The notes beneath the pieces were generated by a model that saw only the letters and a list, made by a program, of their open reading frames with translations, made no database searches and was not told the origin of the DNA. Positions 12,401 through 36,250 of a stretch of DNA of 64,000 bases are shown piece after piece. The translations under genes and the position numbers were made by a program. Each line of letters opens with the position of its first letter. Position 1 is the stretch's first letter. The stretch spans positions 1 through 64,000 of the forward strand of contig JANQFL010000040.1 of assembly GCA_028277845.1 (NCBI GenBank), given 5' to 3'. This stretch comes from Sneathiellales bacterium. GTDB lineage: Bacteria; Pseudomonadota; Alphaproteobacteria; JANQFL01.

Positions 12401-13096
12401 TCAGTTGCCCTGGCTCCACCAGCGTTGGAAGCTCTTGTCGGATTCCGACAGGGCACTCACCTTGAGGGTATCGAGATAGTCCAGTACCTCCTGGCCCGGC
12501 ACCACGTCGGCGTATTTGGCGTCCATGTCGAACAGGTTGGCCTCGTGCGGGCCTTGCGCCCGGTCGCCGACGCCGTCCCGCACGACGATGGTGTTGTAGC
12601 CGTATTGCAGCGAATCGACCGCGGACGCGCGAACGCAGCCGCTGGTGGTGCAGCCGGTGATCACCACCGTATCGACACCCTGGGTCTTCAGATAGGTGTC
12701 CAGGTTAGTGCCGAAAAACGAACTCGCGTACTTTTTCGAAACGATGTAGTCGACGCTGCGCGGCGGGATCCGTTCATCGATCAAACACATATCCGATCCG
12801 CGGACCAATACGGCCAGCGACGGCACTTTTTTGATGAACACCCCGGCGTCGCGGAAATCCGGTTCGTATTCGATCGTGGTGAAGGCGACCGGCAATGCGT
12901 GATCATGAAACGCGTCCAGCAATTGCCGTGTGACCGCCAGTTCGGCGCTGAAATCGCCGCCCAGCGGCGACGACGGATCGGTGAATCCCTGAATGAAATC
13001 AACGATGAGCAGGGCCGGCCGCTCGCCGTATCCGGAGCGTTCGGCAAAGCCCTTGCTTTGATAACTCGCCAACGTGTCTTTTTGCCAATCGTTCAT
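12401..13096 (-). CDS. Isochorismatase-family cysteine hydrolase (N-carbamoylsarcosine amidase / biuret hydrolase-like)
   Basis: 231 aa. LLIVDFIQGF...VITGCTTSGCVRASAVD (catalytic Cys in GCxxxxCV context). Strong RBS GGGAGGA upstream. Confidence 0.75.
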   Translation of the reverse strand: MNDWQKDTLASYQSKGFAERSGYGERPALLIVDFIQGFTDPSSPLGGDFSAELAVTRQLLDAFHDHALPVAFTTIEYEPDFRDAGVFIKKVPSLAVLVRGSDMCLIDERIPPRSVDYIVSKKYASSFFGTNLDTYLKTQGVDTVVITGCTTSGCVRASAVDSLQYGYNTIVVRDGVGDRAQGPHEANLFDMDAKYADVVPGQEVLDYLDTLKVSALSESDKSFQRWWSQGN

Positions 13097-13285
13097 GGCG
13101 TGTCCTCCCGTGACCGGTGCATCTGATGGCGAACCTGACAGTAAGTATAGGCCGTGGGACGGATTCGTAAAATGCCGCGTGCCCCGTTGCCATGATCCCG
13201 ACTCGCGTGCAGACTAATGTGCAAAGCAACGACAACGCCGGAACAAGGCCAATCCCGGCGCCAAGAAAACAGGGAGGGTTCAGTC

Positions 13286-14344
13286 ATGAGCAGCGGTTCC
13301 CGTTATGGCCGTGCGCCCTACGGATCGGGCCAGGCACGCAATGTCACCGGCCCCCGGTACCAGCCCCGGCCATTGCTGTCGCCGTCACCGGCCGCCGCAT
13401 CGGTCGCGTCCCGCTCTCGCAGCACGGCCGGCGGCAAGAAGGAAATCCTGTGCGCCTTCGGCATCGACGTCGATGCCGTCGCCGGCTGGCTCGGATCTTA
13501 TGGCGGCGAGGATTCGCCCTGTGATATTTCCCGTGGCCTGTTCGCCGGCGAGGTCGGCACGCCGCGCCTGGTCGATCTGTTCGATCGGTTTCAGATTCCG
13601 ACCACCTGGTTCATCCCAGGCCACTCCATCGAAACCTTCCCGGAGCAAACCAGGATGGTGGTCGATGCCGGCCACGAGATCGGCATGCACGGCTATTCCC
13701 ACGAAAACCCCATCGCCATGACGCCCGAACAGGAAGAGGCGGTGCTGGACAAGTGCATCGACCTGATCGAGCGGGTTTCCGGCCGCAGCCCGACCGGTTA
13801 CGTGGCGCCGTGGTGGGAATTCAGCCCGGTGACCAACGAGCTTTTGCTCAGCAAGGGCATCAAGTACGACCACAGCCTGATGAACGACGACTTCCATCCG
13901 TTCTATGTCCGGGTCGGCGACAGCTGGACGCCGATCGATTACTCCAAACATCCGGACGAATGGATGAAACCGCTGGTGCGCGGCGTGGAAACCGACCTGA
14001 TCGACATTCCCGGCAGTTGGTATCTCGACGACCTGCCGCCGATGATGTTTATCAAGAGCGCGCCCAATTCCTTCGGCTTCGTCAATCCCCACGACATCGA
14101 GGAACTGTGGCGCGACCAGTTCGACTGGGTTTACCGGGAATACGACTACGCCGTCTTCACCATGACCATCCACCCCGACGTATCGGGCCGGCCGCAGGTC
14201 TTGTTGATGCTGGAACGGGTGTTCGAACATATCTCGAGCCACGCCGGCGTGCGCTTCTGCACCTTCGATGAAATCGCCGACGATTTCGCCCGCCGGCATC
14301 CGCGTGACAAGACGGCGCAGGGCGGCGCCGAGGCGGCGGACTAG
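13286..14344 (+). CDS. Polysaccharide deacetylase (NodB-homology) family hydrolase with a roughly 55-aa disordered N-terminal extension
   Basis: NodB motifs CAFGIDVDA and [12 protein letters not shown]-terminus [47 protein letters not shown] is low complexity. RBS AGGGAGG. Confidence 0.65.
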
Positions 14345-14348
14345 GCCC

Positions 14349-14669
14349 ATGTGCGGCTTGTGCGGCGTGCTCGGCGGACGCGGGCACTGGACCGAAACTT
14401 CGACCAACCCGGACGCCTTCGCCAGCCGCACCGCCGCTCATACCACCGGGCGTGAACGCCAGGCGCGCACCGTTCTGGTCAATCGGGTGCTGAAACACTA
14501 CGGCCTCGGTCTCAAGGACTGGTCGGGCAGTTCCTATGTCCTGCGCAGCAGCACCGGCAAGACCGCGCTGGTCGACAATCTGACCCAGATGTGGGCCCAG
14601 GCCGAGTCGCTGACCGGTCGCGACTGCGACCCGCTGGACGACGCGTTGCTCGCGGCGTTGCGGCGCTAG
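14349..14669 (+). CDS. Hypothetical small protein (106 aa) starting MCGLCGV...
   Basis: ATG 5 nt after the deacetylase stop. Ends 12 nt before the COG0523 gene. GC3-rich codon usage. No recognisable family. Confidence 0.35.
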   Translation: MCGLCGVLGGRGHWTETSTNPDAFASRTAAHTTGRERQARTVLVNRVLKHYGLGLKDWSGSSYVLRSSTGKTALVDNLTQMWAQAESLTGRDCDPLDDALLAALRR

Positions 14670-14681: not shown

Positions 14682-15728
14682 GTGGATTACGCCGGTCTCA
14701 TTCCTGTCAATGTCGTGACAGGCTTTCTCGGCAGCGGCAAGACGACGTTGTTGCGCCGGCTTCTGGCGGCGCCGTCGCTCAGCGACACCGCCGTCCTGGT
14801 CAACGAGTTCGGCGAGGTCGGTCTCGATCATCATCTGCTGCAGAACGTCACCGAAAGCGCCCTGTTGCTGGACAATGGCTGCGTCTGCTGCGCCATCCGC
14901 GGCGATTTGCAGGATTCGTTGCGGCAGCTGTTTTCCCAGCGCGACCGCGGCGAGGTGCCGCCGTTCCGGCGCGTGGTCATCGAAACCTCGGGCCTGGCCG
15001 ATCCGGTGCCGATCGCCTACACCGTGCTGTCCGAGCCGGTGCTGCAGCATCACTTTCGCCTGGGCGCCGTCGTTACCACGGTCGACGCCGTCAACGGCGC
15101 CGGGCAACTGGCGCGCTTCGAGGAATCGGTCAAACAGGTCGCCGTGGCCGACCGCATCGTCGTGACCAAGGCCGACCTCGCCGATGCGGAAACCGTCGCC
15201 GCGTTACGCCGGGCCATCCGGCGCCTCAACGGTGCCGCGCCGATCATCGATAGCGGCGACGGCGGCTGGTCGCCCGAGCAACTGATCGTTGACGATATCT
15301 ACGATGCCGACGGCAAGGCGCGGGAGGTGGGCCACTGGCTCGCTGCGCAGGGCGAGGGGGCGGGTGCTGAGCATGGCCATACCGACGGTGTCTCGTCCTT
15401 CGCCGTCGTCTTCGATCGACCGCTGGACTGGACCGCTTTCGGCGTCTGGATGACCATGCTGCTCAACCGGCACGGCGATAAGGTGTTGCGAATCAAGGGT
15501 TTGCTCAATGTCTCCGGGATCGCCGAACCGGTGCTGATCAACGGCGTGCAGCACATCGTGCATCCGCCCGTGCACATGGACGGCTGGCCCGACGGCGACA
15601 GGCGCAGCCGCATCGTCTTCATTGTCCGCGGGCTCGAGCAGGCACGCATCGAGGCGTCGCTGAATGTCTTCAACGACATGGTCAATTCGTCTGCGGAAGA
15701 GACGAGCGGGCTAATCCGAGCCGGATGA
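14682..15728 (+). CDS. COG0523 (CobW/HypB/UreG-type) G3E-family GTPase, putative metallochaperone
   Basis: P-loop GFLGSGKTTLL, diagnostic GCVCCA (CxCC) motif, C-terminal CobW-C-like domain. Confidence 0.8.
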   Translation: MDYAGLIPVNVVTGFLGSGKTTLLRRLLAAPSLSDTAVLVNEFGEVGLDHHLLQNVTESALLLDNGCVCCAIRGDLQDSLRQLFSQRDRGEVPPFRRVVIETSGLADPVPIAYTVLSEPVLQHHFRLGAVVTTVDAVNGAGQLARFEESVKQVAVADRIVVTKADLADAETVAALRRAIRRLNGAAPIIDSGDGGWSPEQLIVDDIYDADGKAREVGHWLAAQGEGAGAEHGHTDGVSSFAVVFDRPLDWTAFGVWMTMLLNRHGDKVLRIKGLLNVSGIAEPVLINGVQHIVHPPVHMDGWPDGDRRSRIVFIVRGLEQARIEASLNVFNDMVNSSAEETSGLIRAG

Positions 15729-16241
15729 GCCGGGGCTGACGCGGGGCGGCGGGCGGCGGGTCTGCCAGCCGTCGCGGAAGGCGCGCACCACGTGGTGCAG
15801 CAGGTAAAACAGCACCGCCAGGATGATCAGCAGCACGATGGCGAGCAGCTTTTCGCCGAACCCCGAGCCGATCATCGCCTCTTGGCCCATCAGGTGCAGG
15901 GCCAGCATGGCGACGGCCTGCAGCGTCGCGCCGGCGCAGAAAATAACGGCGATCAGGATCGATATCTGCAATGTATCGAACACCAGGGCGCCGACGTCCA
16001 GGTCCTTGACATGGCGGATCAGGTTGCGCCGGAAGGATTGCCAGTGGGACACCGCGTAGGCCAGCACCCCGACCACCGAGGCGAACCAGAAAATCACATT
16101 GGTGAAGTGGATATTGGGGATGCTGCCGACCAGGAATTTCTCGAACGGGGCGTAAAAATACAGGAAAATCAAAAAGATAATGATTGCGATCAGGATGATC
16201 CAGAATCGCGGCCGCCGCCCGGTGGTGGTTTCTTCTGCCAT
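15711..16241 (-). CDS. Small integral membrane protein (about 4 TM), uncharacterised family; paralog of 29807..30289
   Basis: 176 aa. LIFLYFYAPFE...IFW...HW...ATLQAV..L motif block shared with the second copy. Divergent from hyuA-1. Confidence 0.55.
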   Translation of the reverse strand: MAEETTTGRRPRFWIILIAIIIFLIFLYFYAPFEKFLVGSIPNIHFTNVIFWFASVVGVLAYAVSHWQSFRRNLIRHVKDLDVGALVFDTLQISILIAVIFCAGATLQAVAMLALHLMGQEAMIGSGFGEKLLAIVLLIILAVLFYLLHHVVRAFRDGWQTRRPPPRVSPGSSGSD

Positions 16242-16501
16242 GGCCGAAACACTCGCCTCGCGTTGCCAGGGCTGCTCTGCCGTCAGCCTGCGAAAAAGGA
16301 TGGTAGCTTAATTCCTTGCGCTGTCAAATCGCTGACGGCTCGAGCGGCGCGCGATGCAACGGCTGGTGCAGCGCATTTCGAACAACCCGTTCAAGTTTGT
16401 TGACCGGGCCCCCCGCATGGAGAATCATGTAAGGGTCCAAACGAATAAACCGGCCGAACCGACGACAAGTTTGGACACCGGCCGCGTACCGGGGAGGAAG
16501 A

Positions 16502-18571
16502 ATGTCAGGCCGTCTCGGCATTGACGTCGGAGGCACGTTTACGGACCTCCTGTTGTTCGACGGCAGCACGGGCGCCATGCACCTGCTGAAGACGCCGTCC
16601 ACGTCCGACGACCAGTCCATCGGCATTCACACCGGCATTCGCGACATGGTACGCCGGTCCGGCATCGCGCCCGGACAGATCGATGCGGTGCTGCACGGCA
16701 CCACCGTGCCGACCAACATCGTGCTCGAGGAAAAGGGCGCTAAGGTCGGCCTGCTGGTGACGGAAAACTTCGAGCAGGTGCTGCATCTCGCCCGCTCGCA
16801 GACGCCGGGGCCGCTGGCCGGCTGGATCATCATGGAAAAGCCGGATCCGCTGGCCGATCTGGAATTCACCCGCGGCGTGCGCGAGCGCATGTCGGCCCAC
16901 GGCGACGTCATCACCCCGCTCGACGAGACCAGCGTCACGGCCGCGATCCGCGACCTGCTCGATGCCGGCGTCGAATCGATCACCGTGTCGCTGCTGCATT
17001 CCTACGCCAATCCCGATCACGAGCGCCGCATCAAGGCGATGATCGTCGACATGGATGCCGACATCCCGGTGTCGCTGTCGTCCGACCTGCTGCCCGAGTT
17101 CCGCGAATACGAGCGCACGTTGGTCACCGTGATGAACGCCTATGTGCGCCCCAGCATGCGCCGCTATCTGACCGGCTTCGAGGACAAGCTGAAATCCCTC
17201 GAGGTGACGCCGCACGTCAACATCGTGCGCTCCGACGGCGGGCTGATGAGCGTGCCCAGGGCGTCCGATTCGCCGGTCCACACCATGCTGTCGGGGCCGG
17301 CCGGCGGCGTGTCGGGCGCGGCCTATCTGGCCGGCCTGGCCGGTTATCCCGACGCGCTCGGTTTCGACATGGGCGGCACGTCCACCGACGTCTCGCTGAT
17401 CCAGGACGGCAAACCGACCATTTCGCGCCAGACATCGCTCGGCTACTACCCGATCAAGGTGCCCTCGGTCGAAGTGCACAGCGTCGGCGCCGGCGGCGGC
17501 TCCGTCGCCCACGTGCCGATGACCGGCGCGCTCAGGGTCGGGCCGGAAAGCGCCGGTGCCATGCCGGGCCCGGCCTGCTACGGCCATGGCGGCACGGCGC
17601 CCACGGTGACCGACGCCAACGTGGTGCTCGGCCGCCTGCCGCCGCAGCTTTTGGGCGGCGATATGGTCCTCGACACGGCGGCGGCGGAGGAGGTGATCAC
17701 CACACTCGGCCGCAAGATCGGCCTCGACATGCACGCCGCCGCGGAAGGCATTCTCGACATCGTCAACGAAAACATGTTCGGCGCCCTGCGCCTGGTGTCG
17801 GTGCAGAAGGGATTGGACCCGCGCGACTTCGCCCTCGTCGCCTTCGGCGGCGCCGGGCCGCTGCACGCCAACGCCATGGCGATGCTGGCCGGCTGCTACC
17901 CGGTCATCGTGCCGCCCACGCCCGGCGTGCTGTCGGCGCTGGGCTTCCTCTATTCCGACATCAAGAACGAGTTTGCCCGCACCTTCGCCCGCACCCTCGA
18001 CGAAGCCACGCCCGAGCAGGTCGGTGGCATCCTCGAGGATTTGCGGCGCGACGCGCGCGCCTGGTTGGCCGAGGAAGGCCTGGCCGAGGACCGTCAGACG
18101 CTCGGCTTCCAGGCCGACGTGCGCTATTTCCGCCAGGGCTACGAGCTGTCGCTCGACATCGACCCGGCGGCCATGCGCAACGGCGGCATGGCGGATCTGG
18201 CCGCCCGCTTCGGCGCCGCCCACGAACAGCTTTACGGCTTCAAGCTCGACCAGCCCGTGGAACTGGTCAATCTGCGTGCGGTCGGCAGCGGCCGGGTCGA
18301 CAAGCAGGCGGTGCCGCGCTTCGAGCCGGAGGGCGCCGACGCCGCGACGGCCAAGGCCGGCCAGCACCAGGTCTATTTCAACGGCGCCTTCGTCAATACG
18401 GCGGTGTACGACCGGGCCAAGCTGCGGGCCGGCAACCGTCTCGTCGGCCCCGCCATCGTCACACAGACCGACACCACCACGGTCATCCATCCCGGCCATG
18501 TCGGCGAGGTCGACGCCTATCTGAATATCCTCATCCATCGCGAGGGCGAAGCCCTGGCGGAGCGGCGCTGA
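16502..18571 (+). CDS. hyuA: Hydantoinase/oxoprolinase family A subunit (HyuA / N-methylhydantoinase A-like)
   Basis: LGIDVGGTFTDLLLF start and full-length hydantoinase_A domain architecture. 689 aa. RBS GGGGAGGAAG. Confidence 0.85.
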   Translation: MSGRLGIDVGGTFTDLLLFDGSTGAMHLLKTPSTSDDQSIGIHTGIRDMVRRSGIAPGQIDAVLHGTTVPTNIVLEEKGAKVGLLVTENFEQVLHLARSQTPGPLAGWIIMEKPDPLADLEFTRGVRERMSAHGDVITPLDETSVTAAIRDLLDAGVESITVSLLHSYANPDHERRIKAMIVDMDADIPVSLSSDLLPEFREYERTLVTVMNAYVRPSMRRYLTGFEDKLKSLEVTPHVNIVRSDGGLMSVPRASDSPVHTMLSGPAGGVSGAAYLAGLAGYPDALGFDMGGTSTDVSLIQDGKPTISRQTSLGYYPIKVPSVEVHSVGAGGGSVAHVPMTGALRVGPESAGAMPGPACYGHGGTAPTVTDANVVLGRLPPQLLGGDMVLDTAAAEEVITTLGRKIGLDMHAAAEGILDIVNENMFGALRLVSVQKGLDPRDFALVAFGGAGPLHANAMAMLAGCYPVIVPPTPGVLSALGFLYSDIKNEFARTFARTLDEATPEQVGGILEDLRRDARAWLAEEGLAEDRQTLGFQADVRYFRQGYELSLDIDPAAMRNGGMADLAARFGAAHEQLYGFKLDQPVELVNLRAVGSGRVDKQAVPRFEPEGADAATAKAGQHQVYFNGAFVNTAVYDRAKLRAGNRLVGPAIVTQTDTTTVIHPGHVGEVDAYLNILIHREGEALAERR

Positions 18572-18573
18572 CC

Positions 18574-20868
18574 ATGTCGGAGACCACGACCAGAAAACCG
18601 CTGTCGCTCGACGACCTGCTGGCCGCCAATAAGGACCAGTTCGATCAGCTGTTCTCCCGGCAGATGACCCAGAAACCGCCGCCGGTAGTGCCGGTCAGGG
18701 AAGCGGTGCCCGAGCCCGCCGCCGTGACCGAGCCGTCCGAACCTGCGCCGGCGGAACCGGATGAAGCCGATCACGGCGTCGGCAACGTCAACGCCCACCT
18801 CAACCGGCTCTTCAGCATCGACTGGTCGTCCGAAGTTCTCGAACGCGCCATCGCCGACGACCGCGTGACCGTGCGCTGCCGGCTGACCGTCAGGGACGAG
18901 ACCATTGAAGTAGAAGGCTCGGCGCCCAATCGCGGCGATGCCGACGCGGCCCTGCAACGCGCGGTCGACGATGCGCTGCTGCGCGGCGCCGCGCGTGTGC
19001 TCGGCGAGGAACCGCCCGCCCGGCCCAAGAAGCCCTCGGAGCGCTGGAAGGAACGCGACGCGCCACCGCCGCCGGTGCGCCGTGTCGTCGACGAGCAAGA
19101 GCGGGCCGGCCTCGACATCGTCACCCTGGATCTGATCGAGAACGCGCTGCGCAACGCCCGCCACGAAATGGATGCGGTCTTGTTCCGGTCCGCCATGTCG
19201 CCGGTGATCCGCGAGCAGCACGACGAATTCCCCATGATCACCGATGCCGAGGGGCGTATGATCGTCGGCCAGTTCGGCTCGTACATCTCGGAAATGCTGC
19301 GCCAGCGGGACTTCGACCTGCGGCCGGGCGACGTCATTTTGCAGAGCGATCCCTACAAGTGCGGCGGCGCCATCAGCCACATCAACGACTGGATGGTGCT
19401 GGTGCCGGTGTTTCACCGCGGCGACCTGGTCGGTTTTACCTCCATGTTCGGCCACATGATGGACGTGGGCGGGCCGGTGCCCGGCAGCATGCCGACGGCG
19501 GCGACGTCGATCTTCGGCGAGGGCATGCGCATCCCGCCGATCAAGATCTACGAGGCCGGCCAGCTCAACCAGGGCGCTCTCGACCTGCTCATGAACAACA
19601 CCCGCACGCCGGAGATGAACTACTCCGATCTGATGGCGATCATCGCCGGCTGCAAGGCCGGCGAGAAGCGGGTGATCGAAATCTGCGAACGTTTCGGCGC
19701 GGCTTTGTACCGCCAGGCCTGCGCGGCCCTGCTCGAGCGCACCAACACCGCCATGCGCCAGCTCATCGTCCAGAACCTGCCCGAGGAACCGCAATCCTTC
19801 GAGGATTTCGTCGACGACGACGGCTGCGGCAACGGCCCGTTCGTCATGAAGCTGACCGTGTGGCGCGAAGGCGATCATGCCTATTTCGACTGGACCGGTA
19901 CCTCGGCCCAGGCGCCGGGGCCGGTCAACTTCTACCTGCACGAAGGCATGTTCAAGATGTTCATCGGCGTCTACATGATCATGGTCTTCGATCCCCAGAT
20001 CCTGTTCAACGACGGCTTCTACGACCTGATCCACGTCAACATGCCGAAGGGTTCGTTGATCCATCCGGAGTTTCCCGCCGCACTGGGCTGCCGCACCCAT
20101 GCGCTGGCCCGGCAATTCGACGTACTGGGCGGCGCGCTCGGCCGTCACACGCCGGAAACGGCGACCGCCGCCGGCTACGGCTCCAGCCCCTATTTCCTGT
20201 TTTCCGGCACCGACGAGGCCGGCCGGCCGTTTCAGTTGATGGAAATCCTCTACGGCGGCATTCCCGGCCGGCCCATCGGCGACGGCATGGACGGCCATTC
20301 CTGGTGGCCGCTGTTCGAGAACATTCCGACCGAGTACCTGGAAAGCTTCTATCCCATGGTGATCGAAAGCTATGCCAGCCTGGCCGATACCGGCGGCGCC
20401 GGCAAACACCGCGGCGGCAATGGGATCGAGAAGGTCTACCGGCTGCTGGAGGACGGTATGGTGTCGATCCACGACGACCGCCACCGCACCCAGCCATGGG
20501 GCATTCTCGGCGGCCAGCCCGGCGCCTGTTCGCGGAAATGGCTGCAACGCCGGGACGGCGAGCGCGAAGAGCTGCCTTCGAAGATCGACGGTATCCGGGT
20601 GCGCAAGGGTGATCGCATCGTTTTCCGCACCGCCGGCGGCGGCGGATGGGGCGACCCGTTGGAACGGGATGCCGGCCGCGTACGCAACGATGTCGCCCGG
20701 CGGCTGATGTCGATCGAGAAAGCGCGCGACGACTACGGCGTCGTGCTGATGGCCGATGGCCTGCAACTCGATGTTCGCGCCACGCGCGATTTACGCGCTA
20801 ATATGAAACACAGCAGAAGACCGCTGGAGTTGTTCGAGTACGGTGACCGGCCGGCTACGGCCACGTGA
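18574..20868 (+). CDS. hyuB: Hydantoinase/oxoprolinase family B subunit (HyuB-like) with a roughly 170-aa N-terminal extension
   Basis: Hydantoinase_B core begins near residue 175 (DIVTLDLIENALRNARHEMDAVLF...). ATG 2 nt after the hyuA stop. Extension has GC3-rich coding signal, Pro/Glu-rich. Confidence 0.8.
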   Translation: MSETTTRKPLSLDDLLAANKDQFDQLFSRQMTQKPPPVVPVREAVPEPAAVTEPSEPAPAEPDEADHGVGNVNAHLNRLFSIDWSSEVLERAIADDRVTVRCRLTVRDETIEVEGSAPNRGDADAALQRAVDDALLRGAARVLGEEPPARPKKPSERWKERDAPPPPVRRVVDEQERAGLDIVTLDLIENALRNARHEMDAVLFRSAMSPVIREQHDEFPMITDAEGRMIVGQFGSYISEMLRQRDFDLRPGDVILQSDPYKCGGAISHINDWMVLVPVFHRGDLVGFTSMFGHMMDVGGPVPGSMPTAATSIFGEGMRIPPIKIYEAGQLNQGALDLLMNNTRTPEMNYSDLMAIIAGCKAGEKRVIEICERFGAALYRQACAALLERTNTAMRQLIVQNLPEEPQSFEDFVDDDGCGNGPFVMKLTVWREGDHAYFDWTGTSAQAPGPVNFYLHEGMFKMFIGVYMIMVFDPQILFNDGFYDLIHVNMPKGSLIHPEFPAALGCRTHALARQFDVLGGALGRHTPETATAAGYGSSPYFLFSGTDEAGRPFQLMEILYGGIPGRPIGDGMDGHSWWPLFENIPTEYLESFYPMVIESYASLADTGGAGKHRGGNGIEKVYRLLEDGMVSIHDDRHRTQPWGILGGQPGACSRKWLQRRDGEREELPSKIDGIRVRKGDRIVFRTAGGGGWGDPLERDAGRVRNDVARRLMSIEKARDDYGVVLMADGLQLDVRATRDLRANMKHSRRPLELFEYGDRPATAT

Positions 20869-23800: not shown

Positions 23801-24907
23801 ATGGCCGACTACGACGTCGTTCTGGACCACGTCCATAAGACCTATCCGGGCGGCGTCCGCGCGGTGATCGATTTCAACGCCGAAATCGAACGCGGCGAAT
23901 TCGTCGCCATGCTGGGCCCCTCCGGTTGCGGCAAGACGACCACGTTGCGCATGATCGGTGGCCTTGAGGAAGTCACCGAGGGCAAGATCTACATTGCCGG
24001 CCAGGACGTCACCGATCTGCCGCCGTCGCAGCGCGATACCTCGATGATGTTTCAGAGCTTCGCTCTGTTTCCCCACCGCAACGTGTTCCAGAACGTCGAA
24101 TTCAGCCTCAAGATGAAAGGCATCGACAAGGACGAGCGGGCGCGCCAGGTCTGGGAAATGGTCGAAATGGTGGGCTTGAAGGAACTGGCCATGCGCCGGC
24201 CGCACGATCTCAGCGGCGGCCAGCAGCAGCGCGTCGCCCTGGCGCGGGCTTTGATCAGCCGGCCGACCCTGCTGTTGCTTGACGAACCGCTGGGCGCGTT
24301 GGACTACAGCCTGCGCCAGGCCATGATGATCGAACTCAAGCGCATTCAGCGCGAACTGGGCATCACCTTCATCATGGTCACCCACTCGCAGCAGGAAGCC
24401 ATGGCCATGGCCGACAAGGTGGTGGTGATGAGCGATGCCCTGGTGCAGCAGATCGGCCCGTCACGGGAGATCGCCGAATCGCCGCGCACCCGCTTCGTCG
24501 CCGATTTCATCGGCAACAACAACCTGTTCACCGGCACCATCAAATCGCAAAGCGGCTCGATCGTCTTCGTCGAGGCCAAGGACAGGCTCTACTACGTGCG
24601 CGTGCCCGATTACATCAAGCGCGTGCCGGTCGGCGGGGAGGTGGATTTCTCCGTCCGCGCCGATCTCATGCATACCGGCGAACACCGCAACATGGCCAAC
24701 AGCGTCAAGGGCAGTTACGTCACGACCGAATATCTCGGCACCCTGGAAACCGATGTGTTCGAGATCGCGCCCGGCCATTACGTGCATGTCGAGCAGCACC
24801 GCAAACTGTCCGACCGGGTCTACCAGATGGGCGAGACGGAAACCATCTGCTGGAGCGCCGAGGCCGGCATCCTGCTCGAAAAGGCCGGCGCCCACCTGAC
24901 GCAATAA
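23801..24907 (+). CDS. ABC transporter ATP-binding protein, PotA/spermidine-putrescine type (with C-terminal TOBE-like region)
   Basis: Walker A GPSGCGKTT, LSGGQQQRVALARAL, 368 aa. Convergent with its presumed permease genes. Confidence 0.8.
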   Translation: MADYDVVLDHVHKTYPGGVRAVIDFNAEIERGEFVAMLGPSGCGKTTTLRMIGGLEEVTEGKIYIAGQDVTDLPPSQRDTSMMFQSFALFPHRNVFQNVEFSLKMKGIDKDERARQVWEMVEMVGLKELAMRRPHDLSGGQQQRVALARALISRPTLLLLDEPLGALDYSLRQAMMIELKRIQRELGITFIMVTHSQQEAMAMADKVVVMSDALVQQIGPSREIAESPRTRFVADFIGNNNLFTGTIKSQSGSIVFVEAKDRLYYVRVPDYIKRVPVGGEVDFSVRADLMHTGEHRNMANSVKGSYVTTEYLGTLETDVFEIAPGHYVHVEQHRKLSDRVYQMGETETICWSAEAGILLEKAGAHLTQ

Positions 24908-24916: not shown

Positions 24917-25744
24917 TCAGTGCGAGCGGCGGTACAGGATGGTGTAGATCGCCAGGAACAGCCCGATCATGAACAGCGAGAACAGGGTGGAGATGGTCCC
25001 CAACGCGAACAGGGTCGGCCGGATGCGCTGGGTCATCGAGGCGTTGATGTCGAGCGGCAAGGTGTTGAACTCGCCCGACAGCAGTGTCGTGCGGGCAAAC
25101 TCGTCGTAGGAGAGCGTGAAACCGAACAGGCCGGCGGCGACGATGCCCGGCGTGATCAAGGGCAGCGTCACTTCCTTGAACACCGTCCATTCGTCGGCGC
25201 CCATGTCGCGGGCCGCCTCCTCCAGACTGGCGTCGAACCGGTTGAACACCGCCATCATCACCAGGAAGCCGAACGGCAGAGCCCAGACCACATGCACGGC
25301 AAGCGCCGAGGTGTACCAGGACGGCGACAGGCCGAGCTGGCGCATCAGCGTCGCCAGGCCCAGGCTGAGCAGGACGCCCGGCACCATCAGGCCGGCCAGG
25401 ATGGTGTAGAACAAGGCGTTGGAAAAACGGAACTTGTGGCGGAACGCCATCGCCAGCATGGTCGAAAACAGCGCCGTGATGACCATGACGATGAGGGCCA
25501 GAACGATGGAGCGGCCCATGGCGCCCTGCAGGTCGCCGACCGTCGACGGCTCCAGCAGTTTGTTCCACCAGTACAAACTCCAACCGCGCATCGGAAAGCT
25601 CGTGCCGCCGCGCCGGCCCTGGAACGACAGGATGAACATGGCGATCATCGGGCCGTAGATGAACAACAGGAACAGCACGTAGTAGATGCTGAACCCGGTC
25701 TTCACCCGCAGCTTGCGCCATCGTTCCGGGGTCCATCGCGCCAT
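24917..25744 (-). CDS. ABC transporter permease (PotC-like)
   Basis: 275 aa, 6 TM, binding-protein-dependent transport EAA-loop region. Confidence 0.8.
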   Translation of the reverse strand: MARWTPERWRKLRVKTGFSIYYVLFLLFIYGPMIAMFILSFQGRRGGTSFPMRGWSLYWWNKLLEPSTVGDLQGAMGRSIVLALIVMVITALFSTMLAMAFRHKFRFSNALFYTILAGLMVPGVLLSLGLATLMRQLGLSPSWYTSALAVHVVWALPFGFLVMMAVFNRFDASLEEAARDMGADEWTVFKEVTLPLITPGIVAAGLFGFTLSYDEFARTTLLSGEFNTLPLDINASMTQRIRPTLFALGTISTLFSLFMIGLFLAIYTILYRRSH

Positions 25745-25745: not shown

Positions 25746-26726
25746 TCACAGTTCCTTGCGGATATCGACGATACGCAAAATGACGATGATGCCGATCACC
25801 ATGGCCACCATCAGCATGAGCGCGTTGACCGCGGCAAACGGATAATTGGCGATGCCGTAATAGTTGAGGATGACGGTGCCCGTCGTGCTGGTCTTGCCGC
25901 CGTAGACGACGACCGCGGTGGCAAACTCGCCCATGATCATGACGAAGATGAAGATCATGCCGATGGCGACACCGGGCAACGACAGCGGACCGATGATCTC
26001 GCGAAAGATCTGGAACGGCGTCGCCCCCATATCGATGGCGGCTTCGATGATGGCCTTGTCGATCTTGGCCAGCGAGAAAAAGATCGGCCCGATGCACAAC
26101 ACCACGTAGATCTGCACCAGCGCCATGGTGTAGCCGAATTCCGAATAGAACAGGAAGCTGACCGGCTTGTCGACGATCCCCATGCCGACCAGGGCCTGAT
26201 TGATCAGGCCGCGGCGGCCCAGCATGGGCAGCCAGGCCACCGCCCGGATCAGGTAGCTGGTCCAGAACGGCACCATGCACAGAAGGAACAGCGCCAGTTG
26301 CCACTTGAAGGCCTGCACCTGCATGGCCAGGAAATAGGCGATGGGATAGCCGACGATCAGGCACAACAGCATGACGACGAGCGTGAAGTAGATCGTCGAA
26401 CCCAATGTGCGGATAAAGATGCTGGGCAGCAGAAAGCGATCCGAACCCGGCTCGAAGAAGCCTTCGGTGAAGAAGTATTCGAAGTAGGACTTGAACGACA
26501 GTTCGGGAATCATGCCGTGCGGCGTCGATTTCCAGAAACTGAAGACGATGATCGAGACCAGCGGGACGACCAGGAACACGATCAGCCACAAAGTCGCGGG
26601 GGCAATCAGCCAGCCGGGGGAAAACCCTTCCTGAGGCCGCACCACCTTCGCCCGCACGACCGACTCGTCCGGCGTGGGCTGGCTGCCGATCAATCCTGGA
26701 TGATGGGTGCCGGTGACTTCAGTCAT
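25746..26726 (-). CDS. ABC transporter permease (PotB-like)
   Basis: 326 aa, multi-TM. 1-nt gap to the downstream permease. Confidence 0.8.
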   Translation of the reverse strand: MTEVTGTHHPGLIGSQPTPDESVVRAKVVRPQEGFSPGWLIAPATLWLIVFLVVPLVSIIVFSFWKSTPHGMIPELSFKSYFEYFFTEGFFEPGSDRFLLPSIFIRTLGSTIYFTLVVMLLCLIVGYPIAYFLAMQVQAFKWQLALFLLCMVPFWTSYLIRAVAWLPMLGRRGLINQALVGMGIVDKPVSFLFYSEFGYTMALVQIYVVLCIGPIFFSLAKIDKAIIEAAIDMGATPFQIFREIIGPLSLPGVAIGMIFIFVMIMGEFATAVVVYGGKTSTTGTVILNYYGIANYPFAAVNALMLMVAMVIGIIVILRIVDIRKEL

Positions 26727-26858: not shown

Positions 26859-28133
26859 CTACGCGCTGAGGAACTCGGTCCAGCGCTTCACCAGATAGTC
26901 GTTTTCCTTCATGATCGAGTTCCACACGGCGATCTTCTTGAAGCGTTTCTCGTAGGAACCGCCGTCGCGGACCGTGCCTTTCTCGACCAACGGATTGCCG
27001 AACGGGTCGGGCAGTTCCTTGGCAGCCGGCTTGCCCTCGTACCAGTAGTCCCACTCGTCCTGCGGCAGGTGCTTCTTCACTGGCTCGAACGCCGACATGT
27101 AGTAGCCCTGGCGGGCGACGAAGGCACCGGCCCAGCCGTCGAGCCACCAGTTGAGGTACTCGTAAGCCTGGTCGAGCTTCTTGCCCGTGGCCTTGGCCGA
27201 GATGGCCTTGGCACCGTGCCAACCGCGCATGCCTTCCTTGGGCGACGCATAGATGCACCGGACGCCTTCGGCGTTGACGGCGGTGACGGCCGGCGACCAC
27301 ATGCTTTGCAGAATGACTTCGCCCGACACCATCAGGTTGACCGACTGGCCGAAGGTTTCCCAGAAGGCGCGGAAATGGCCTTCCTTTTTCTTCTTGATCA
27401 GGAAGTCGACCAGGAAGTCGATTTCCTCTCTCGTCATGTCGCCCTTGTCGCCGAACTTCTTCAGGCCGAGCGCTTCGACACCCATGGCGGCATCCATGGC
27501 GCCGATCTGCGGCACGTTCAACAATGCGACGGCGCCCTTGAAGTCGGGATGGAACAGTTCGGCCCAGCTTTCGATATCCCGGCCGGTGTCGTCGGGTGCA
27601 TAGCCCAGGCTATCGGCGTTGTGGATGGTCGGCAGCGCCGAGATATAGCGTGACGGACCCTTGATCCGCTTGCCGTCCTTATCGACCCACATCTGGCGCA
27701 CCGGCGCGTCGCCGTCGCCGATCTGAGAACCTTCCGTCAGCATGCCGGTCTTGGTCAAATTGGAAACCAGATCCCAGTTTTTGATGCGCTGGGTGTCGAT
27801 GGGCTGGAACACGCCGGCCGGTACCATGGCATCGAACATGTCGAAGTAGCATTCGGACACTTCGTACTGGTCGTTCTGGTTCAGGGTCTTGCCGAACAAG
27901 GCACCATATCCGAGCGCCTGGCCACGGATCGGGATGCCCGTATCCTTCGACGCCTGCGCCTGGATTTCGTTGATGATGCTCACGCCCAGACCGATGGTCC
28001 GGATCGGATCGGCGGCACGCACGATGTTTGGGAAGCCGACGATCGAACCGGCGGCGATCGCACCGGCTCCGCCTACGAATTGCCGGCGCGAGATGTCTTT
28101 AATGAGCGACTTGCTTTTCTTCTTCTTGGCCAT
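26859..28133 (-). CDS. ABC transporter periplasmic substrate-binding protein (family 1, PotD/PotF-like) with Tat signal
   Basis: N-terminus MAKKKKSKSLIKDISRRQFVGGAGAIAAG (twin-arginine motif). 424 aa. Confidence 0.75.
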   Translation of the reverse strand: MAKKKKSKSLIKDISRRQFVGGAGAIAAGSIVGFPNIVRAADPIRTIGLGVSIINEIQAQASKDTGIPIRGQALGYGALFGKTLNQNDQYEVSECYFDMFDAMVPAGVFQPIDTQRIKNWDLVSNLTKTGMLTEGSQIGDGDAPVRQMWVDKDGKRIKGPSRYISALPTIHNADSLGYAPDDTGRDIESWAELFHPDFKGAVALLNVPQIGAMDAAMGVEALGLKKFGDKGDMTREEIDFLVDFLIKKKKEGHFRAFWETFGQSVNLMVSGEVILQSMWSPAVTAVNAEGVRCIYASPKEGMRGWHGAKAISAKATGKKLDQAYEYLNWWLDGWAGAFVARQGYYMSAFEPVKKHLPQDEWDYWYEGKPAAKELPDPFGNPLVEKGTVRDGGSYEKRFKKIAVWNSIMKENDYLVKRWTEFLSA

Positions 28134-28342: not shown

Positions 28343-29794
28343 GTGAGCGTACTGATTAAGAACGGTCGCATTGTTACGGCAACCGACGATTATCATGCGG
28401 ACATTTTCGCCAGCGGAGAACGCGTCGATCTCATTGGCACAAACCTGGAAATTGATGCCGATCTGGTTGTCGACGCCGGCGGCAAGCTGGTCATCCCCGG
28501 CGGCATCGACCCGCACACGCACCTAGAACTTCCGTTCGGCGGTACAACCACATCCGATACGTTCGAAACCGGCACCCGCGCCGCGGCGTTCGGCGGTACA
28601 ACCAGCATCATTGATTTCGCGGTGCAGTTCAAAGGCGAGTCGACCCTGGAAGCGCTCGAGACATGGCACGAGAAGGCGGCCGGCAAAACGGCGATCGACT
28701 ACAGCTTTCACATGATCATCACCGACATGCCGGAAAGCCGCACACATGAAATGCGCCGGCTCTCGGAGGAAGGGGTCTCCAGCTACAAGCTGTTCATGGC
28801 CTATCCCGGTGCCATGCTGTCCGACGACGGCACCATATTCCGCGCCATGCGACAGGCCGGTGAGGACGGCACCCTGGTCTGCATGCACGCCGAGAACGGC
28901 ATCGTCATCGACGAACTGATCAAGATCGCCCTGGAGCAAGGGCACATCGAACCGAAATATCATGCCCTGACCCGGCCGACGCGATTGGAGGCGGAAGGCG
29001 TGCATCGGGCGCTGGCGATCGCCGAGGTCGCGCGCTCGCCCGTCTACATCGTGCACCTCAGCGCATACGATGCTTTGCAGGAACTGCGTATGGCGCAGGC
29101 CCGCGGCGTCATGGCTCATGCCGAAACCTGTCCGCAGTATCTGCTGCTCGACGTGTCCGCCTACGACGAGCCGGGTTTCGACGGCGCCAAATATGTGCTG
29201 ACGCCGCCGTTGCGCGAGAAATGGAACCAGGAGGAACTGTGGCGCGGTCTGCGGGGCAATGCCCTGAACGCCATCTCGACCGACCACTGTCCGTTCTGCC
29301 TCAAGGAACAGAAGGAACTGGGCAAATACGATTTCAGCAAGATCCCCAACGGCGGGCCGGGTATCGAGAACCGCATGAGCCTGATCTATCACTACGGCGT
29401 CAACGGCGGCTACATCGATCTCAACCGTTTCGTCGAACTGACGTCGACCGGACCGGCCAAGATTTTCGGCATGTTCCCGAAGAAGGGCACCATCGCCGTC
29501 GGGTCCGATGCCGATATCGTCATATTCGATCCGGAGCGGGAAGAGACGATCAGCTACTACAACGCCCACACCCACCACATGAATATCGACTACAACGCCT
29601 ATGAAGGCATGCCTGTCAAAGGCTTCACCGAAACCGTGTTCAGCCGTGGCCGCATGATCATCGACCGGGGCGAATATCTCGGCCGGCCGGGCGACGGGGA
29701 GTTCATCAAACGCGGGCCCTACGGCGGCATGTACACGCCGTCGCGCTCAGGCGAGATACCGTCGCAGGCACCGTCCACGCGCCGGGGCGGATAG
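28343..29794 (+). CDS. Dihydropyrimidinase / D-hydantoinase (cyclic amidohydrolase)
   Basis: GTG start after GGGGAGG. GGIDPHTHLELPF metal-binding motif. The expected carbamylatable Lys is not located in this read. 483 aa. Confidence 0.8.
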   Translation: MSVLIKNGRIVTATDDYHADIFASGERVDLIGTNLEIDADLVVDAGGKLVIPGGIDPHTHLELPFGGTTTSDTFETGTRAAAFGGTTSIIDFAVQFKGESTLEALETWHEKAAGKTAIDYSFHMIITDMPESRTHEMRRLSEEGVSSYKLFMAYPGAMLSDDGTIFRAMRQAGEDGTLVCMHAENGIVIDELIKIALEQGHIEPKYHALTRPTRLEAEGVHRALAIAEVARSPVYIVHLSAYDALQELRMAQARGVMAHAETCPQYLLLDVSAYDEPGFDGAKYVLTPPLREKWNQEELWRGLRGNALNAISTDHCPFCLKEQKELGKYDFSKIPNGGPGIENRMSLIYHYGVNGGYIDLNRFVELTSTGPAKIFGMFPKKGTIAVGSDADIVIFDPEREETISYYNAHTHHMNIDYNAYEGMPVKGFTETVFSRGRMIIDRGEYLGRPGDGEFIKRGPYGGMYTPSRSGEIPSQAPSTRRGG

Positions 29795-29806: not shown

Positions 29807-30289
29807 TTATGTTGAAGCGGGCGCGGCCGCCTTGCCGCTGCGGATGATCTTCAGCAGCCAGAAGATAATGCAGAACAGGCCGGTCAGAATGACCAGGGCG
29901 ATGACGGCGGCCAATAGTTTGCCGAAGTCGGCGCCCAGGGTGTAACCGGGCTCGAGCAAATAGGCGCACAGCATCTGTACGGCCTGCAGCGTGGCGCTGG
30001 CGCTCAGCAAAATGGCGGTGAACGTCGAGCCGCGCAGCGAACTCAACACCATGGCCTCGACATTGTGCTGTTCCAGAATGTGCAGCCGGTAGGCGCGCCA
30101 GTGAAACACGCAGAAACCGACGATGCCGATGATCAGCCCGGCCCAGAAAATGGCGTTGTCGTAGCCCAGGCCGTAGACGACGAGGTTGAACAGGTCCTCG
30201 AACGGCTTGTAAAAATACAGGAAAATCAGAACGATAATGAAAACGATAAACCCGACGAGGGTCCAAAACCACTGCCACCCGGTCATCTT
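29807..30289 (-). CDS. Small integral membrane protein, paralog of 15711..16241
   Basis: Shares the LIFLYFYKPFE / IFW / HW / ATLQAVQML / DFGKLLA motif blocks. Start taken at ATG 30289 (MTGWQWFW). The track ORF extends to a TTG at 30352. Confidence 0.5.
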   Translation of the reverse strand, partial: KMTGWQWFWTLVGFIVFIIVLIFLYFYKPFEDLFNLVVYGLGYDNAIFWAGLIIGIVGFCVFHWRAYRLHILEQHNVEAMVLSSLRGSTFTAILLSASATLQAVQMLCAYLLEPGYTLGADFGKLLAAVIALVILTGLFCIIFWLLKIIRSGKAAAPAST

Positions 30290-30374
30290 CTCTGCGTCCC
30301 TCGTCGTTGTTGCAAGCCGGTTCCCTGTTCCGGCACGGAGACTTCGAGACAAAGTCTATCCTAGCCGCCAGCCG

Positions 30375-31811
30375 TCAGGCAACCGGCGGCGTTTTCGGTA
30401 AGTCCCCGGGCGTTTGCGTGTGCCATGAGGTTGCGGTTTCGTAGGCCGCCGCCGCTGCCAGCAGTTCCGGCTCCTCGAACCAGCGGCCGATCAACTGCAG
30501 TCCGACGGGCAGGCCTTCGCCGGTCAGTCCGCACGGCACACTGATGGCCGGCTGTCCGGTGAACGATGCCAACCGGCATGGCCGGCCCAGAACGGCGGCG
30601 GCATCGATGTCTTCTCCGTTCTGACGGTAACAGCCGGTGTCGATCAACGGCGCCGGTCCGGACGCCGTCGGTACGGCCAGGACATCGACCGACGTCATGA
30701 CGTCGGCCATGGCCTGCTTGATATCCGCCTGACGGCATTGCGCCAGTTGGTAATCGGCGGCGGCAATGTCCTTGCCCTGCAACAGCCGTGCCTCGACTTC
30801 GGGTCCCATGACGCCCGGATGCTCGGCCACCCGGTCGGCATGCACGGCATAGGCTTCGGATAGGGCCATCACCGTCCAGCTTTCCAGCGCGTCGTCGGCG
30901 AACGGGAGGGCGATGGGGCGCACCTCCGCGCCCAGCCCGGCGAGTTCATCGATGGCGGTGCGGATGGCGGCTTCGATATCGGGGTGCGGGCCGTCGAAAA
31001 AGAAATTGTCCGGCACGCCGATGATGCGGCCGCGCAGGCCGTCGCCGATGTGCTCGCTATAGTCTCGCACGCGGACGCCGTGCGTGGTCGGATCCGCGCC
31101 GTCTTCTCCGGCGATCGCCTGCAGCACCAGTGCCGCGTCCCGCACGGTCCGGGCCAGCGGGCCGCCGTGATCGAAACTGTCGCACAACGGGAAGATTCCC
31201 CGGCGGCTGACCAGGCCGTAGCTCTGCTTCAATCCGACCACGCCGCACAGCGCCGCCGGAATGCGGATCGAGCCGCCGGTGTCCGTGCCCAGTGCCGCCG
31301 GCACCAGCGACGCCGCGACGGCGCACCCGGACCCGGCGCTGGAGCCGCCGCAGCCGCGTTCCCGGTCCCACGGATTGCGGGCCGAGCCGAAATGCGGATT
31401 GATGCCCGTCGGGCCGTAGGCGAATTCGTTGAGGTTGAGCAATCCGACGACGATGGCGCCGGCGTCCTTCAATTTGCCGACGGTCGCGGCGTCCTGCGGG
31501 TCGGCCTCCTCGGTGAACAGTTTCGAACCGCAGGTGCGGCGCATGCCGGCGACGGCATAGAGGTCCTTCACCGCCACCGGCACGCCGTGCAACGGGCTCC
31601 GCCGGCGCCCGGCCCGGATCTCCGTCTCCGCCACACGGGCGGCGGCCAGGGCCTGGTCGGGATAGACCGAGAGGAAGGCGTTGAGGACCGGGTTCAGCGC
31701 CTCGATGCGGTCGAGCGTCGCCCGCATCACCTCGACCGGCGAGACCGCGTCGGTGTCCAGAAGGTCACTCAGTTCGGCAATGGTCAGGCGGGCGAGATCC
31801 GTCCCGCTCAC
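30375..31811 (-). CDS. Amidase-signature (AS) family amidase
   Basis: GGSSAGSGCAVAASLVPAALGTDTGGSIRIPAA signature. GTG start at 31811 overlaps the TGA of the upstream membrane-protein gene (GTGA). The 798-aa track ORF is a 5' read-through. Confidence 0.8.
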   Translation of the reverse strand: MSGTDLARLTIAELSDLLDTDAVSPVEVMRATLDRIEALNPVLNAFLSVYPDQALAAARVAETEIRAGRRRSPLHGVPVAVKDLYAVAGMRRTCGSKLFTEEADPQDAATVGKLKDAGAIVVGLLNLNEFAYGPTGINPHFGSARNPWDRERGCGGSSAGSGCAVAASLVPAALGTDTGGSIRIPAALCGVVGLKQSYGLVSRRGIFPLCDSFDHGGPLARTVRDAALVLQAIAGEDGADPTTHGVRVRDYSEHIGDGLRGRIIGVPDNFFFDGPHPDIEAAIRTAIDELAGLGAEVRPIALPFADDALESWTVMALSEAYAVHADRVAEHPGVMGPEVEARLLQGKDIAAADYQLAQCRQADIKQAMADVMTSVDVLAVPTASGPAPLIDTGCYRQNGEDIDAAAVLGRPCRLASFTGQPAISVPCGLTGEGLPVGLQLIGRWFEEPELLAAAAAYETATSWHTQTPGDLPKTPPVA

Positions 31812-32923
31812 GCCGCCGCCTCGGGGATCGCCGCGATCAGCAGGATGCCGTAGATGATGAGGAACAGGACATCCTTGGCCAGGGGGATGCCCTGGCTTTG
31901 CGATTCGCGGGTGATGATCAGGCTGATGACTTCGAGCACGAAAAAGACGACGGCGAGGCCGAAGAAGGGCCAGATGGTGCTCCACCAGGAAATAGCGGCC
32001 GGTACCTCGACGCCCTGCACCGTGCGCCAGATCAGCAGCAGGATGGGCAGGGCGATCAGGTAGGCGTAGGCGATCAGGAAGCGCAGCCGCGTCAGCTTGC
32101 GGTCGATAATCCAGAACAGCAACAGAAACGCGGTGACGTGGATGAAATCCCAGAACAGGGCCGCATAGGTGTCGCCGCCGCCCGACTGCAGCAGGTTGAG
32201 GTAGCCGATGACGTAGAGAAACACCAGCGCGTCGCAGAACAGCCACTCGCGCAGGCTCTCGCCCGGCGTTTTCACGTTCCAGGTGCGTGAGGCCTTGTCG
32301 AACAGCATGACCAGGGCGACGATCAGGCCCGCCGGGTAGATCAGGTTGCTGATCAGCACGTATTGCTGGGCGTTGGGCACGTACGACCAGTTGAGGATGA
32401 GAAAGGCCAGTCCGAGGCCGAGCAGGCCGATCAGCCGCACCGCCGACGGCGATTCGTAGCGCGCCACCGGGGCGGTTTCCGTCGGTTCCGCGGTTTCGGC
32501 CGGCGCCTCCTCGGCGATGGCGGCGGTCGTTGCGGCCGCCGCGGCGGCCAGGTCCCGGTTCAGCCGCGCCTGGCGCCAGAAGACGGTCAGCAGGAACACC
32601 AGCAGCCCGGCGGCGGCGATCAGGCCCATGACGATGATGAAGGTCAGCGAGCGGCCGTCGGTCTGCCATTCGGCCGGGGCGAGGCCGGGCAGCGTGCCCG
32701 GCGGGAACTGCCAGAACAGCAGCACGACGGCGATGACGATCACCGCGCCGGCCAGCAGGAACGCGTACCACTGGGGCGCGTATCCGTCCGCCGCCTGGCC
32801 GTCCGTCCCGGCCGCTTGCGGCCGCCGGGCGTAGCGCGAGATGAGGAAAATCAGGAACGACAGCACGCCGATCACGGCGATGGCGATCATGACTTCGAGA
32901 AAGGCGACGGATCGATTGTCCAA
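31808..32923 (-). CDS. Polytopic integral membrane protein of unknown function (371 aa), translationally coupled to the amidase
   Basis: About 9-10 hydrophobic segments. N-terminal LSFLIFLISRYARRP resembles the LIFLYFY segment of the small membrane paralogs. Ala/Thr/Glu-rich loop in the middle. Confidence 0.55.
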   Translation of the reverse strand: MDNRSVAFLEVMIAIAVIGVLSFLIFLISRYARRPQAAGTDGQAADGYAPQWYAFLLAGAVIVIAVVLLFWQFPPGTLPGLAPAEWQTDGRSLTFIIVMGLIAAAGLLVFLLTVFWRQARLNRDLAAAAAATTAAIAEEAPAETAEPTETAPVARYESPSAVRLIGLLGLGLAFLILNWSYVPNAQQYVLISNLIYPAGLIVALVMLFDKASRTWNVKTPGESLREWLFCDALVFLYVIGYLNLLQSGGGDTYAALFWDFIHVTAFLLLFWIIDRKLTRLRFLIAYAYLIALPILLLIWRTVQGVEVPAAISWWSTIWPFFGLAVVFFVLEVISLIITRESQSQGIPLAKDVLFLIIYGILLIAAIPEAAA

Positions 32924-33133
32924 AACGGTGCCTCGGTTCTTGCGGCGGCCTTTATTCCCTGCCCGGCAAGGCTAACATCGGTCAATCGGGCTGTCGATTC
33001 GCCGCGATGGGATGGAAGCATACATAACTGACACATTAGACGTTGACCGTGGGCGCCGATATCGGTGACCATTTGGCAACACAGGCGCCGAACCGGGACC
33101 ATCGAAACGGCGCCGGACAGGGGAGGAGGCACC

Positions 33134-33796: not shown

Positions 33797-36250
<2,454 letters not shown>

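Follow-up and report, generated by a model that had tools for sequence, protein, structure and literature searches.

The 64,000-nucleotide (nt) stretch analysed here, which we call the window (positions 1 to 64,000 of contig JANQFL010000040.1, assembly GCA_028277845.1, from a Sneathiellales bacterium), encodes two small membrane proteins, SMP1 and SMP2. The two are paralogs with four transmembrane (TM) helices each, and they form an orphan family whose gene neighbourhood is near-invariant and whose conservation resides mostly in the TM helices. Around them lies a conserved gene cluster of 27 kb that encodes two HyuAB enzyme pairs, a very large flotillin-like protein, a second orphan membrane protein of 371 aa (Mem371) and an ABC importer. 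We tentatively propose, as a possible reading, that SMP1 and SMP2 are intramembrane subunits, serving as scaffold or as conduit, of a patch that is organised by flotillin and links uptake to the two HyuAB enzymes, both of which carry appended tags.

SMP1 and SMP2 are 35% identical over 148 aa (BLASTP, E=2e-28), so the paralogy claimed in an earlier reading of the letters alone (hereafter the first-pass annotation) holds on alignment. The blocks that it quoted as shared (LIFLYFYxPFE, IFW, HW, ATLQAV and FG.KLLA) are all present, and most of them are invariant or nearly so across 28 homologs; F13, W14, L24, F26, Y30, P32, F33, N48, W52, G58, H66, W67, L91, A98, Q108, L141, F145 and R156 are invariant in both subfamilies. 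SMP1 starts with ATG and has 176 aa. For SMP2, the annotation was right that a paralog is encoded at 29807–30352, but the TTG at 30352 is not its start. The true start is the ATG at 30289, giving 159 aa: it is preceded by a GAGGGA Shine-Dalgarno sequence, a GGGG or GAGG Shine-Dalgarno sequence lies upstream of the corresponding ATG in nearly all orthologous loci, and the database protein P0121 matches SMP2 over the full 159 aa at 100% identity. The predicted four TM segments per protein were also recovered, by different routes. In SMP1, hydropathy flagged four regions, and an AlphaFold2 (AF2) model, which was available for this paralog only, is all-helical with just a short disordered tail (helices 10–29/31–40, 46–76, 83–117 and 127–159). 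In SMP2, hydropathy flagged only three regions; TM3 is less hydrophobic and was assigned by homology to SMP1. The protein terminates 13 residues past TM4. Going by the positive-inside rule, both termini and loop 2 of the SMPs are predicted from their charge distribution to be cytoplasmic.

Conservation is concentrated in the membrane. Per-position entropy, computed over 118 SMP1 and 121 SMP2 sequences, is 0.44–0.75 bits in the TM helices versus 0.57–2.44 bits in loops and tails, so the helices are far more conserved; SMP2 is the more conserved of the two paralogs. This pattern suggests helices that are buried in an oligomer or hetero-complex, or that line a pore, and it is a poor fit to a passive anchor presenting cytosolic loops. 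The TM helices showed no clear one-face periodicity (the strongest signal stood at 77 of 2000 shuffles).

The family is narrow. By word-indexed search, SMP1 has 643 relatives and SMP2 has 588, all of them nameless or called "hypothetical protein" except P0071, whose label ("ABC-type xylose transport system permease subunit") is spurious. The two paralogs occur on the same contigs, and several long contigs are common to both lists of relatives. A hidden Markov model search with a two-subfamily SMP profile (alignment A1) against 1.84 billion cluster representatives returned only 87 matches, which are the SMP family itself (four full-length clusters plus fragments) and include no informative fusions. 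As all 87 are SMPs, the family consists of the two subfamilies only, with no detectable distant relatives. Scans of SMP1, SMP2 and Mem371 against Pfam (E<=1) and NCBIfam gave no meaningful match, and a sequence-profile search of the PDB with profiles for the SMPs, Mem371 and a 75-aa domain described below gave nothing below E=0.5. A precomputed PF28548.1 label is attached to four SMP1 homologs, and the SMP family may thus be Pfam PF28548; scanning the same proteins with the Pfam copy used here, which lacks this model, gave no such match, and a full-text literature search found no mention of it. The first-pass annotation had recognised no transporter family in these sequences, and the empty Pfam and NCBIfam scans, together with a deep profile search that returned SMPs alone, bear this out.

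A scan of one genome per species was positive in 217 of 185,579 genomes. The best 80 of these 217 are all uncultured and metagenome-assembled, and they belong to Alphaproteobacteria (Rhodospirillaceae, Rhodobiaceae, Rhizobiaceae, Xanthobacteraceae), Gammaproteobacteria and Burkholderiales. The habitats of the SMP-positive Proteobacteria are marine and soil. Searching 72,556 plasmids by tblastn with SMP1 and Mem371 gave nothing.

To describe the gene neighbourhood, 21 window proteins were mapped by tblastn onto 163 fetched loci, and neighbours were then counted. Among SMP1 loci with at least 1.2 kb upstream, hyuA1 adjoins SMP1 in 81/90, divergently in 78, as in the window and as the first-pass annotation had described, and co-directionally in 3 gammaproteobacterial loci with the order cobW>SMP1>hyuA1>hyuB1>flotillin. 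The gene on the other side of SMP1 is a convergent cobW in 83/95 loci, and the locus includes a flotillin gene in 65/67. The near-abutment of the convergent cobW and SMP1 genes, whose 3' ends overlap by 18 nt in the window (15711–15728), recurs elsewhere (in L003 they overlap by 17 nt, in L001 they are 5 nt apart). In one gammaproteobacterial locus (L082, 1–10000), genes for two secreted reprolysin-like metallopeptidase/CARDB proteins of ~1050 aa stand upstream of SMP1 in place of hyuA1, which looks like an insertion.

The surroundings of SMP2 are constant too. Mem371 precedes it in 36/36 loci, directly upstream on the same strand in 30 and with an amidase gene in between in 6. Among the loci with enough upstream sequence, hyuB lies at most three genes upstream on the same strand in 18/24, forming an ISO-hyuA2-hyuB2-Mem371-SMP2 string. 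The two halves come together in a compact soil layout (L112 and L119; arrowheads give the direction of transcription) that reads <ABC-ATPase <flotillin <hyuB1 <hyuA1, SMP1>, <cobW <PDA and continues ISO> hyuA2> hyuB2> Mem371> SMP2>, <perm <perm <SBP, DHP>; the window is a rearranged version of this gene set. One lineage has hyuA1-hyuB1-flotillin-ATPase-Mem371-SMP2 as one co-directional string, with a gap of 5 nt between the ATPase and Mem371 genes. The Mem371-SMP2 spacer is longer than usual, and in seven soil-type loci (L101, L104, L106, L108, L116, L119 and L120) it contains a conserved motif, TTGCCGTT...GACGTGCTCCAGTT, about 60–75 nt upstream of the SMP2 ATG, that could be an internal promoter or regulatory site.

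These counts refine the idea of one small membrane protein per amidohydrolase module. Co-occurrence with hydantoinase genes, which the first-pass annotation had suggested checking, is clear, and the idea stands for the two HyuAB modules (81/90 and 18/24). It fails for the other two enzymes that had been paired with SMP2. The dihydropyrimidinase gene is often not adjacent to SMP2, whose constant partner is Mem371, and the amidase gene is missing between Mem371 and SMP2 in 30/36 loci, so it is not a core partner.

Mem371 is itself an orphan: 267 relatives were found, none with a Pfam domain, and their alignment (A2) contains many invariant charged and aromatic residues. The AF2 model shows a C-terminal six-helix (6-TM) domain with a predicted local distance difference test score (pLDDT) of about 70–96, mostly >85. 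The 371-aa open reading frame (ORF) annotated earlier is real, and the family consensus MDxRSxxFLEVM favours its TTG start at 32923 over a shorter 360-aa call. The GTGA overlap of the Mem371 TGA stop with the GTG start of the amidase is real as well, and a 4-nt overlap also occurs in 4 of 6 other amidase-carrying loci. Nevertheless, the two are separate overlapping cistrons, i.e. coupled rather than "translationally fused" as had been written, and with the amidase absent from this position in most loci the coupling is a feature of one sub-lineage. A relationship of Mem371 to the SMPs had been suggested too; it was rejected, as BLASTP gave no significant match and profile-profile comparison with hhalign gave a probability of 0.9%. 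The LSFLIFLIS string common to Mem371 and the SMPs is an ordinary hydrophobic TM segment. One metagenomic fragment of 199 aa (P0319) has the C-terminus of Mem371, the translated spacer and the N-terminus of SMP2 in a single reading frame. This read-through is probably a sequencing or gene-calling artefact; if it were a genuine fusion, it would support a Mem371-SMP2 complex.

The enzymes beside the SMPs carry unusual extensions. The N-terminal add-on of HyuB-1 (18574–19113) opens with an acidic amphipathic helix, SLDDLLxANKxQFDxLF. A conserved domain of ~75 aa comes after it, with a Pro/Ala linker on its N-terminal side and a second linker on the other. The N-terminus of HyuA-2 in window-type genomes (33797–34207) has a comparable helix, NLTDWFDSQL...EFDxL, joined to a Pro/Ala linker of 100 aa; in soil genomes, it is the C-terminus of HyuB-2 that carries the 75-aa domain of the HyuB-1 type (L040, L041, L057 and L063). 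The consensus of this domain is LNxRFGxxWSSEVVEH...SKMQFGSARANGDEG.ALQRATDDALAKCA. It has no significant match in Pfam or the PDB (for two of the 16 members, Rad52_Rad22 comes up at E ~0.03). Because the add-ons are found on either HyuAB subunit and at either terminus, they look like movable tethering or targeting tags. In this they resemble the cargo peptides of microcompartments and encapsulins, which the SMPs do not: a terminal amphipathic helix and a poorly conserved Pro/Ala-rich linker. The cluster differs from those systems in having no shell or encapsulin genes, and its sole scaffold-like protein is the membrane-anchored flotillin.

The flotillin-like protein has 938 aa, comprising an N-terminal TM, an SPFH domain, a coiled coil of ~500 aa in which ERDREIALVAKAEE-type units recur, and a ~200-aa domain at the C-terminus. 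It scores 52 bits against PF01145 (cutoff 23.6), which with its TM and coiled coil identifies it as an SPFH/Band 7 protein, and over the SPFH part it shares 40% identity with annotated flotillins. Against the equivalog FloT model, it reaches 34 bits versus a cutoff of 700. Basic residues come after the N-terminal TM, which indicates that the SPFH domain and coiled coil are cytoplasmic, on the same side of the membrane as HyuAB.

Taken together, these findings would make SMP1 and SMP2 dedicated subunits, integral to the membrane, of a single conserved system that spans several operons. Its other parts are two ATP-dependent hydrolases of cyclic amides of the HyuAB type, the giant flotillin that faces the cytoplasm, a Pot-like ABC importer, Mem371 and several amidohydrolases. 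We infer a physical association of the SMPs with Mem371, flotillin or HyuAB, in which SMP2 would hetero-oligomerise with Mem371 and SMP1 would serve the hyuA1-hyuB1-flotillin operon. The two SMPs together may form the membrane-embedded part, scaffold or conduit, of a flotillin-organised patch. The two HyuAB enzymes would be kept there by their appended helix, linker and domain tags and would encounter the cyclic amide after its import. A more elaborate version, which we consider quite unlikely, is an SPFH-scaffolded metabolosome: in the cytoplasm, a cage or raft would be built of the 938-aa flotillin, the HyuABs would be recruited into it through their tags, and SMP1, SMP2 and Mem371 would sit in its floor as gated conduits from the periplasm or the ABC importer to the enzymes. 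If true, this would be a form of bacterial metabolic organisation that has not yet been described.

Several observations weigh against the proposed patch. All of the evidence for the role of the SMPs is guilt by association. The Mem371 and SMP2 genes are separated by 58–238 nt (median ~115 nt) with no coupled overlap, and SMP1 has no Mem371-like neighbour at all. The AF2 monomer of SMP1 is of moderate confidence (pLDDT 70, predicted TM-score 0.47), and fold searches with Foldseek were uninformative (best E-value 0.77). Finally, SMP2 has the same cytoplasmic loop whether the HyuAB-2 of the genome carries the N-terminal helix tag or the C-terminal domain tag, so direct docking of an SMP onto a tag is not supported. 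Among the roles that the first-pass annotation had preferred to bulk transport (membrane anchoring, substrate channelling or sensing), this lack of co-variation and the TM-dominated conservation argue against a simple cytosolic docking anchor; they leave scaffold and conduit alike and do not separate them.

The same TM-dominated conservation would also suit pore or transport subunits. SMP2 and Mem371 would then be a two-component secondary transporter or channel, comparable to DctQ/DctM or TctB/TctA, for a second substrate or a product, and SMP1 a homo-oligomeric channel for module 1. We find this rather doubtful, although some points are in its favour. The TM helices are the conserved part of the SMPs, the invariant polar and aromatic residues Y30, N48, W52, H66, W67 and Q108 lie in them or at their ends, and the cluster has three or more ring-opening enzymes with only one recognisable importer. 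Like DctQ of TRAP and TctB of TTT systems, SMP2 has ~160 aa and four TM and is strictly paired, in a catabolic locus, with a large polytopic protein of about 10 TM. Unlike them, SMP1 lacks a large partner, neither the SMPs nor Mem371 match a DctQ-, DctM-, TctA- or TctB-type family in Pfam, the SMP2 locus has the order large-then-small with a spacer of ~115 nt, and the solute-binding protein of the locus is the SBP_bac_8 of an ABC system, not DctP or TctC. A complete ABC importer is already present. More generally, the SMPs have no sequence or significant fold match to transporter or channel families and no invariant charged residue within the TMs. AmiS/UreI amide/urea channels have 6 TM and NCS1 hydantoin/allantoin permeases (Mhp1, HyuP) have 12, both with recognisable Pfam signatures; the SMPs are similarly encoded beside amide- or hydantoin-hydrolysing enzymes but have four TM and no Pfam or NCBIfam match. 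Exporters of the SMR type (EmrE/Gdx) have four TM in about 110 aa and a membrane-embedded conserved Glu in TM1. The SMPs differ in lacking both a Pfam match to them and an invariant acidic residue inside a TM; the glutamate of the PFE block is not invariant and sits where TM1 meets the periplasm.

The presence of a flotillin gene in nearly every locus raises another explanation. Genes for SPFH proteins (flotillin, stomatin, HflK/C-like) are normally accompanied by an NfeD/YqiJ-type membrane partner, and in a canonical alphaproteobacterial flotillin operon (L164) genes for PspA, an OB-fold membrane protein and flotillin follow one another in this order and overlap. In the mapped loci, no NfeD/YqiJ-like gene stands beside the cluster flotillin, and the gene upstream of it is always hyuB1. 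The SMPs could be a functional replacement for this partner that nucleates or regulates flotillin assembly without serving the enzymes, and they do resemble NfeD/YqiJ proteins (~150–215 aa) in size, in being multi-TM and in sharing a locus with a flotillin gene. That the SMPs are degenerate NfeD/YqiJ proteins is ruled out, as hhalign gave a probability of 0.2% against the OB-fold protein of a Rhizobium flotillin operon and Pfam gave no match at E<=1. We consider the functional version unlikely as well: no soluble C-terminal OB-fold domain follows the TMs, neither SMP gene adjoins or overlaps the flotillin gene, and two paralogs tracking two HyuAB pairs fit enzyme modules better than a single flotillin. 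Very improbable, in our view, is a role for SMP1 in metal handling, in which it would act with the CobW/COG0523 GTPase and a small CxxC protein to metallate the neighbouring hydrolases. Its usual neighbour cobW, co-directional with it in some Gammaproteobacteria, points this way, as do two histidines near the cytoplasmic ends of TM2 and TM4 (the invariant H66 and an LLH His that is invariant in the SMP1 subfamily). Yet SMP2 has neither the second His nor a cobW neighbour and is the more conserved paralog, and the SMPs have no invariant Cys, Asp or Glu ligands and no similarity to known metal transporters.

The genes of the cluster are listed in Table 1. The window has ~65% G+C, and coding frames were therefore chosen by third-position GC. 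Elsewhere, the window contains ordinary genes for catabolism and transport, and an Rfam scan of the whole window matched no RNA element. The small ORF between the deacetylase-family hydrolase and cobW genes is conserved (~106 aa, beginning MCGLCGVLGGRGHW, with the CxxC). It is called as a gene of 106–108 aa in L001 and L003 and has no Pfam match. The ABC ATPase gene stands apart from the genes for its permeases and binding protein, on the opposite strand; in the mapped loci, it always follows the flotillin gene and is transcribed together with hyuA1-hyuB1-flotillin. This hints that importer energisation and the enzyme/flotillin module are coupled in their expression.

Table 1. Features of the SMP cluster in the window (positions of the whole stretch).
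Feature	Position	Strand	Basis or remark
Isochorismatase-1	12401-13096	-	Pfam/NCBIfam; SMP1-side flank
Polysaccharide-deacetylase-family hydrolase	13217-14344	+	Pfam/NCBIfam; SMP1-side flank
Small CxxC ORF	about 14346-14669	+	between deacetylase-family hydrolase and cobW
CobW/COG0523 GTPase	14682-15728	+	Pfam/NCBIfam; SMP1-side flank
SMP1, 176 aa, 4-TM orphan membrane protein	15711-16241	-	divergent from hyuA1
SMP1/hyuA1 divergent intergenic region, 260 bp	16242-16501	.	no Rfam match
HyuA-1, hydantoinase/oxoprolinase A subunit, caprolactamase-alpha-like	16502-18571	+	Pfam/NCBIfam
HyuB-1, 764 aa including 180-aa N-terminal add-on	18574-20868	+	Pfam
SPFH/flotillin-like protein, 938 aa	20946-23762	+	Pfam/NCBIfam, translation
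ABC ATPase	23801-24907	+	Pfam; after flotillin gene
PotB/PotC-like permeases, two	24917-25744 and 25746-26726	-	Pfam/NCBIfam
Solute-binding protein, SBP_bac_8, part of ABC system	26859-28133	-	Pfam/NCBIfam
Dihydropyrimidinase/D-hydantoinase	28343-29794	+	TIGR02033, 591 bits; convergent with SMP2
SMP2, 159 aa, SMP1 paralog	29807-30289	-	BLASTP, database match; last gene of Mem371-amidase-SMP2 string
Amidase-signature amidase, AtzE-like but below family cutoff	30375-31811	-	Pfam/NCBIfam; GTG start
Mem371, 371 aa, ~10 TM, orphan polytopic membrane protein	31808-32923	-	TTG start
Isochorismatase-2 (isochorismatase-family hydrolase), module 2	33065-33790	+	Pfam/NCBIfam
HyuA-2, 817 aa including 137-aa N-terminal helix and Pro/Ala linker, module 2	33797-36250	+	Pfam/NCBIfam
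HyuB-2, module 2	36251-38179	+	Pfam/NCBIfam

The enzyme content, read with knowledge of the families, suggests catabolism of a cyclic ureide or amide as the putative substrate. It combines the ATP-dependent HyuABs with isochorismatase-family hydrolases, which we take to be carbamoyl-amidase-like, a deacetylase-family hydrolase, presumably of the PuuE type, a dihydropyrimidinase and an optional amidase. Full-text literature searches for hydantoinase with flotillin or SPFH, and for the gene set of the cluster, returned nothing relevant, and neither membrane-protein family has a characterised or structurally assigned relative; we therefore rate the SMP family and the whole system as a new kind, with a function inferred from context.

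This work defines two orphan membrane-protein families, SMP and Mem371, and flags an unstudied system for the catabolism of nitrogen heterocycles that is present in marine and soil Proteobacteria (at least 217 species-level genomes). The function of bacterial flotillins is still debated, chiefly for want of defined clients. If the SMPs and Mem371 do belong to a flotillin-organised enzyme assembly, the cluster would be a case of genetically hard-wired flotillin scaffolding of a specific metabolic pathway, with the client membrane proteins and the enzyme tags all encoded in one locus. As a compact locus that holds candidate clients and tags, it would make the flotillin question directly testable by heterologous expression.

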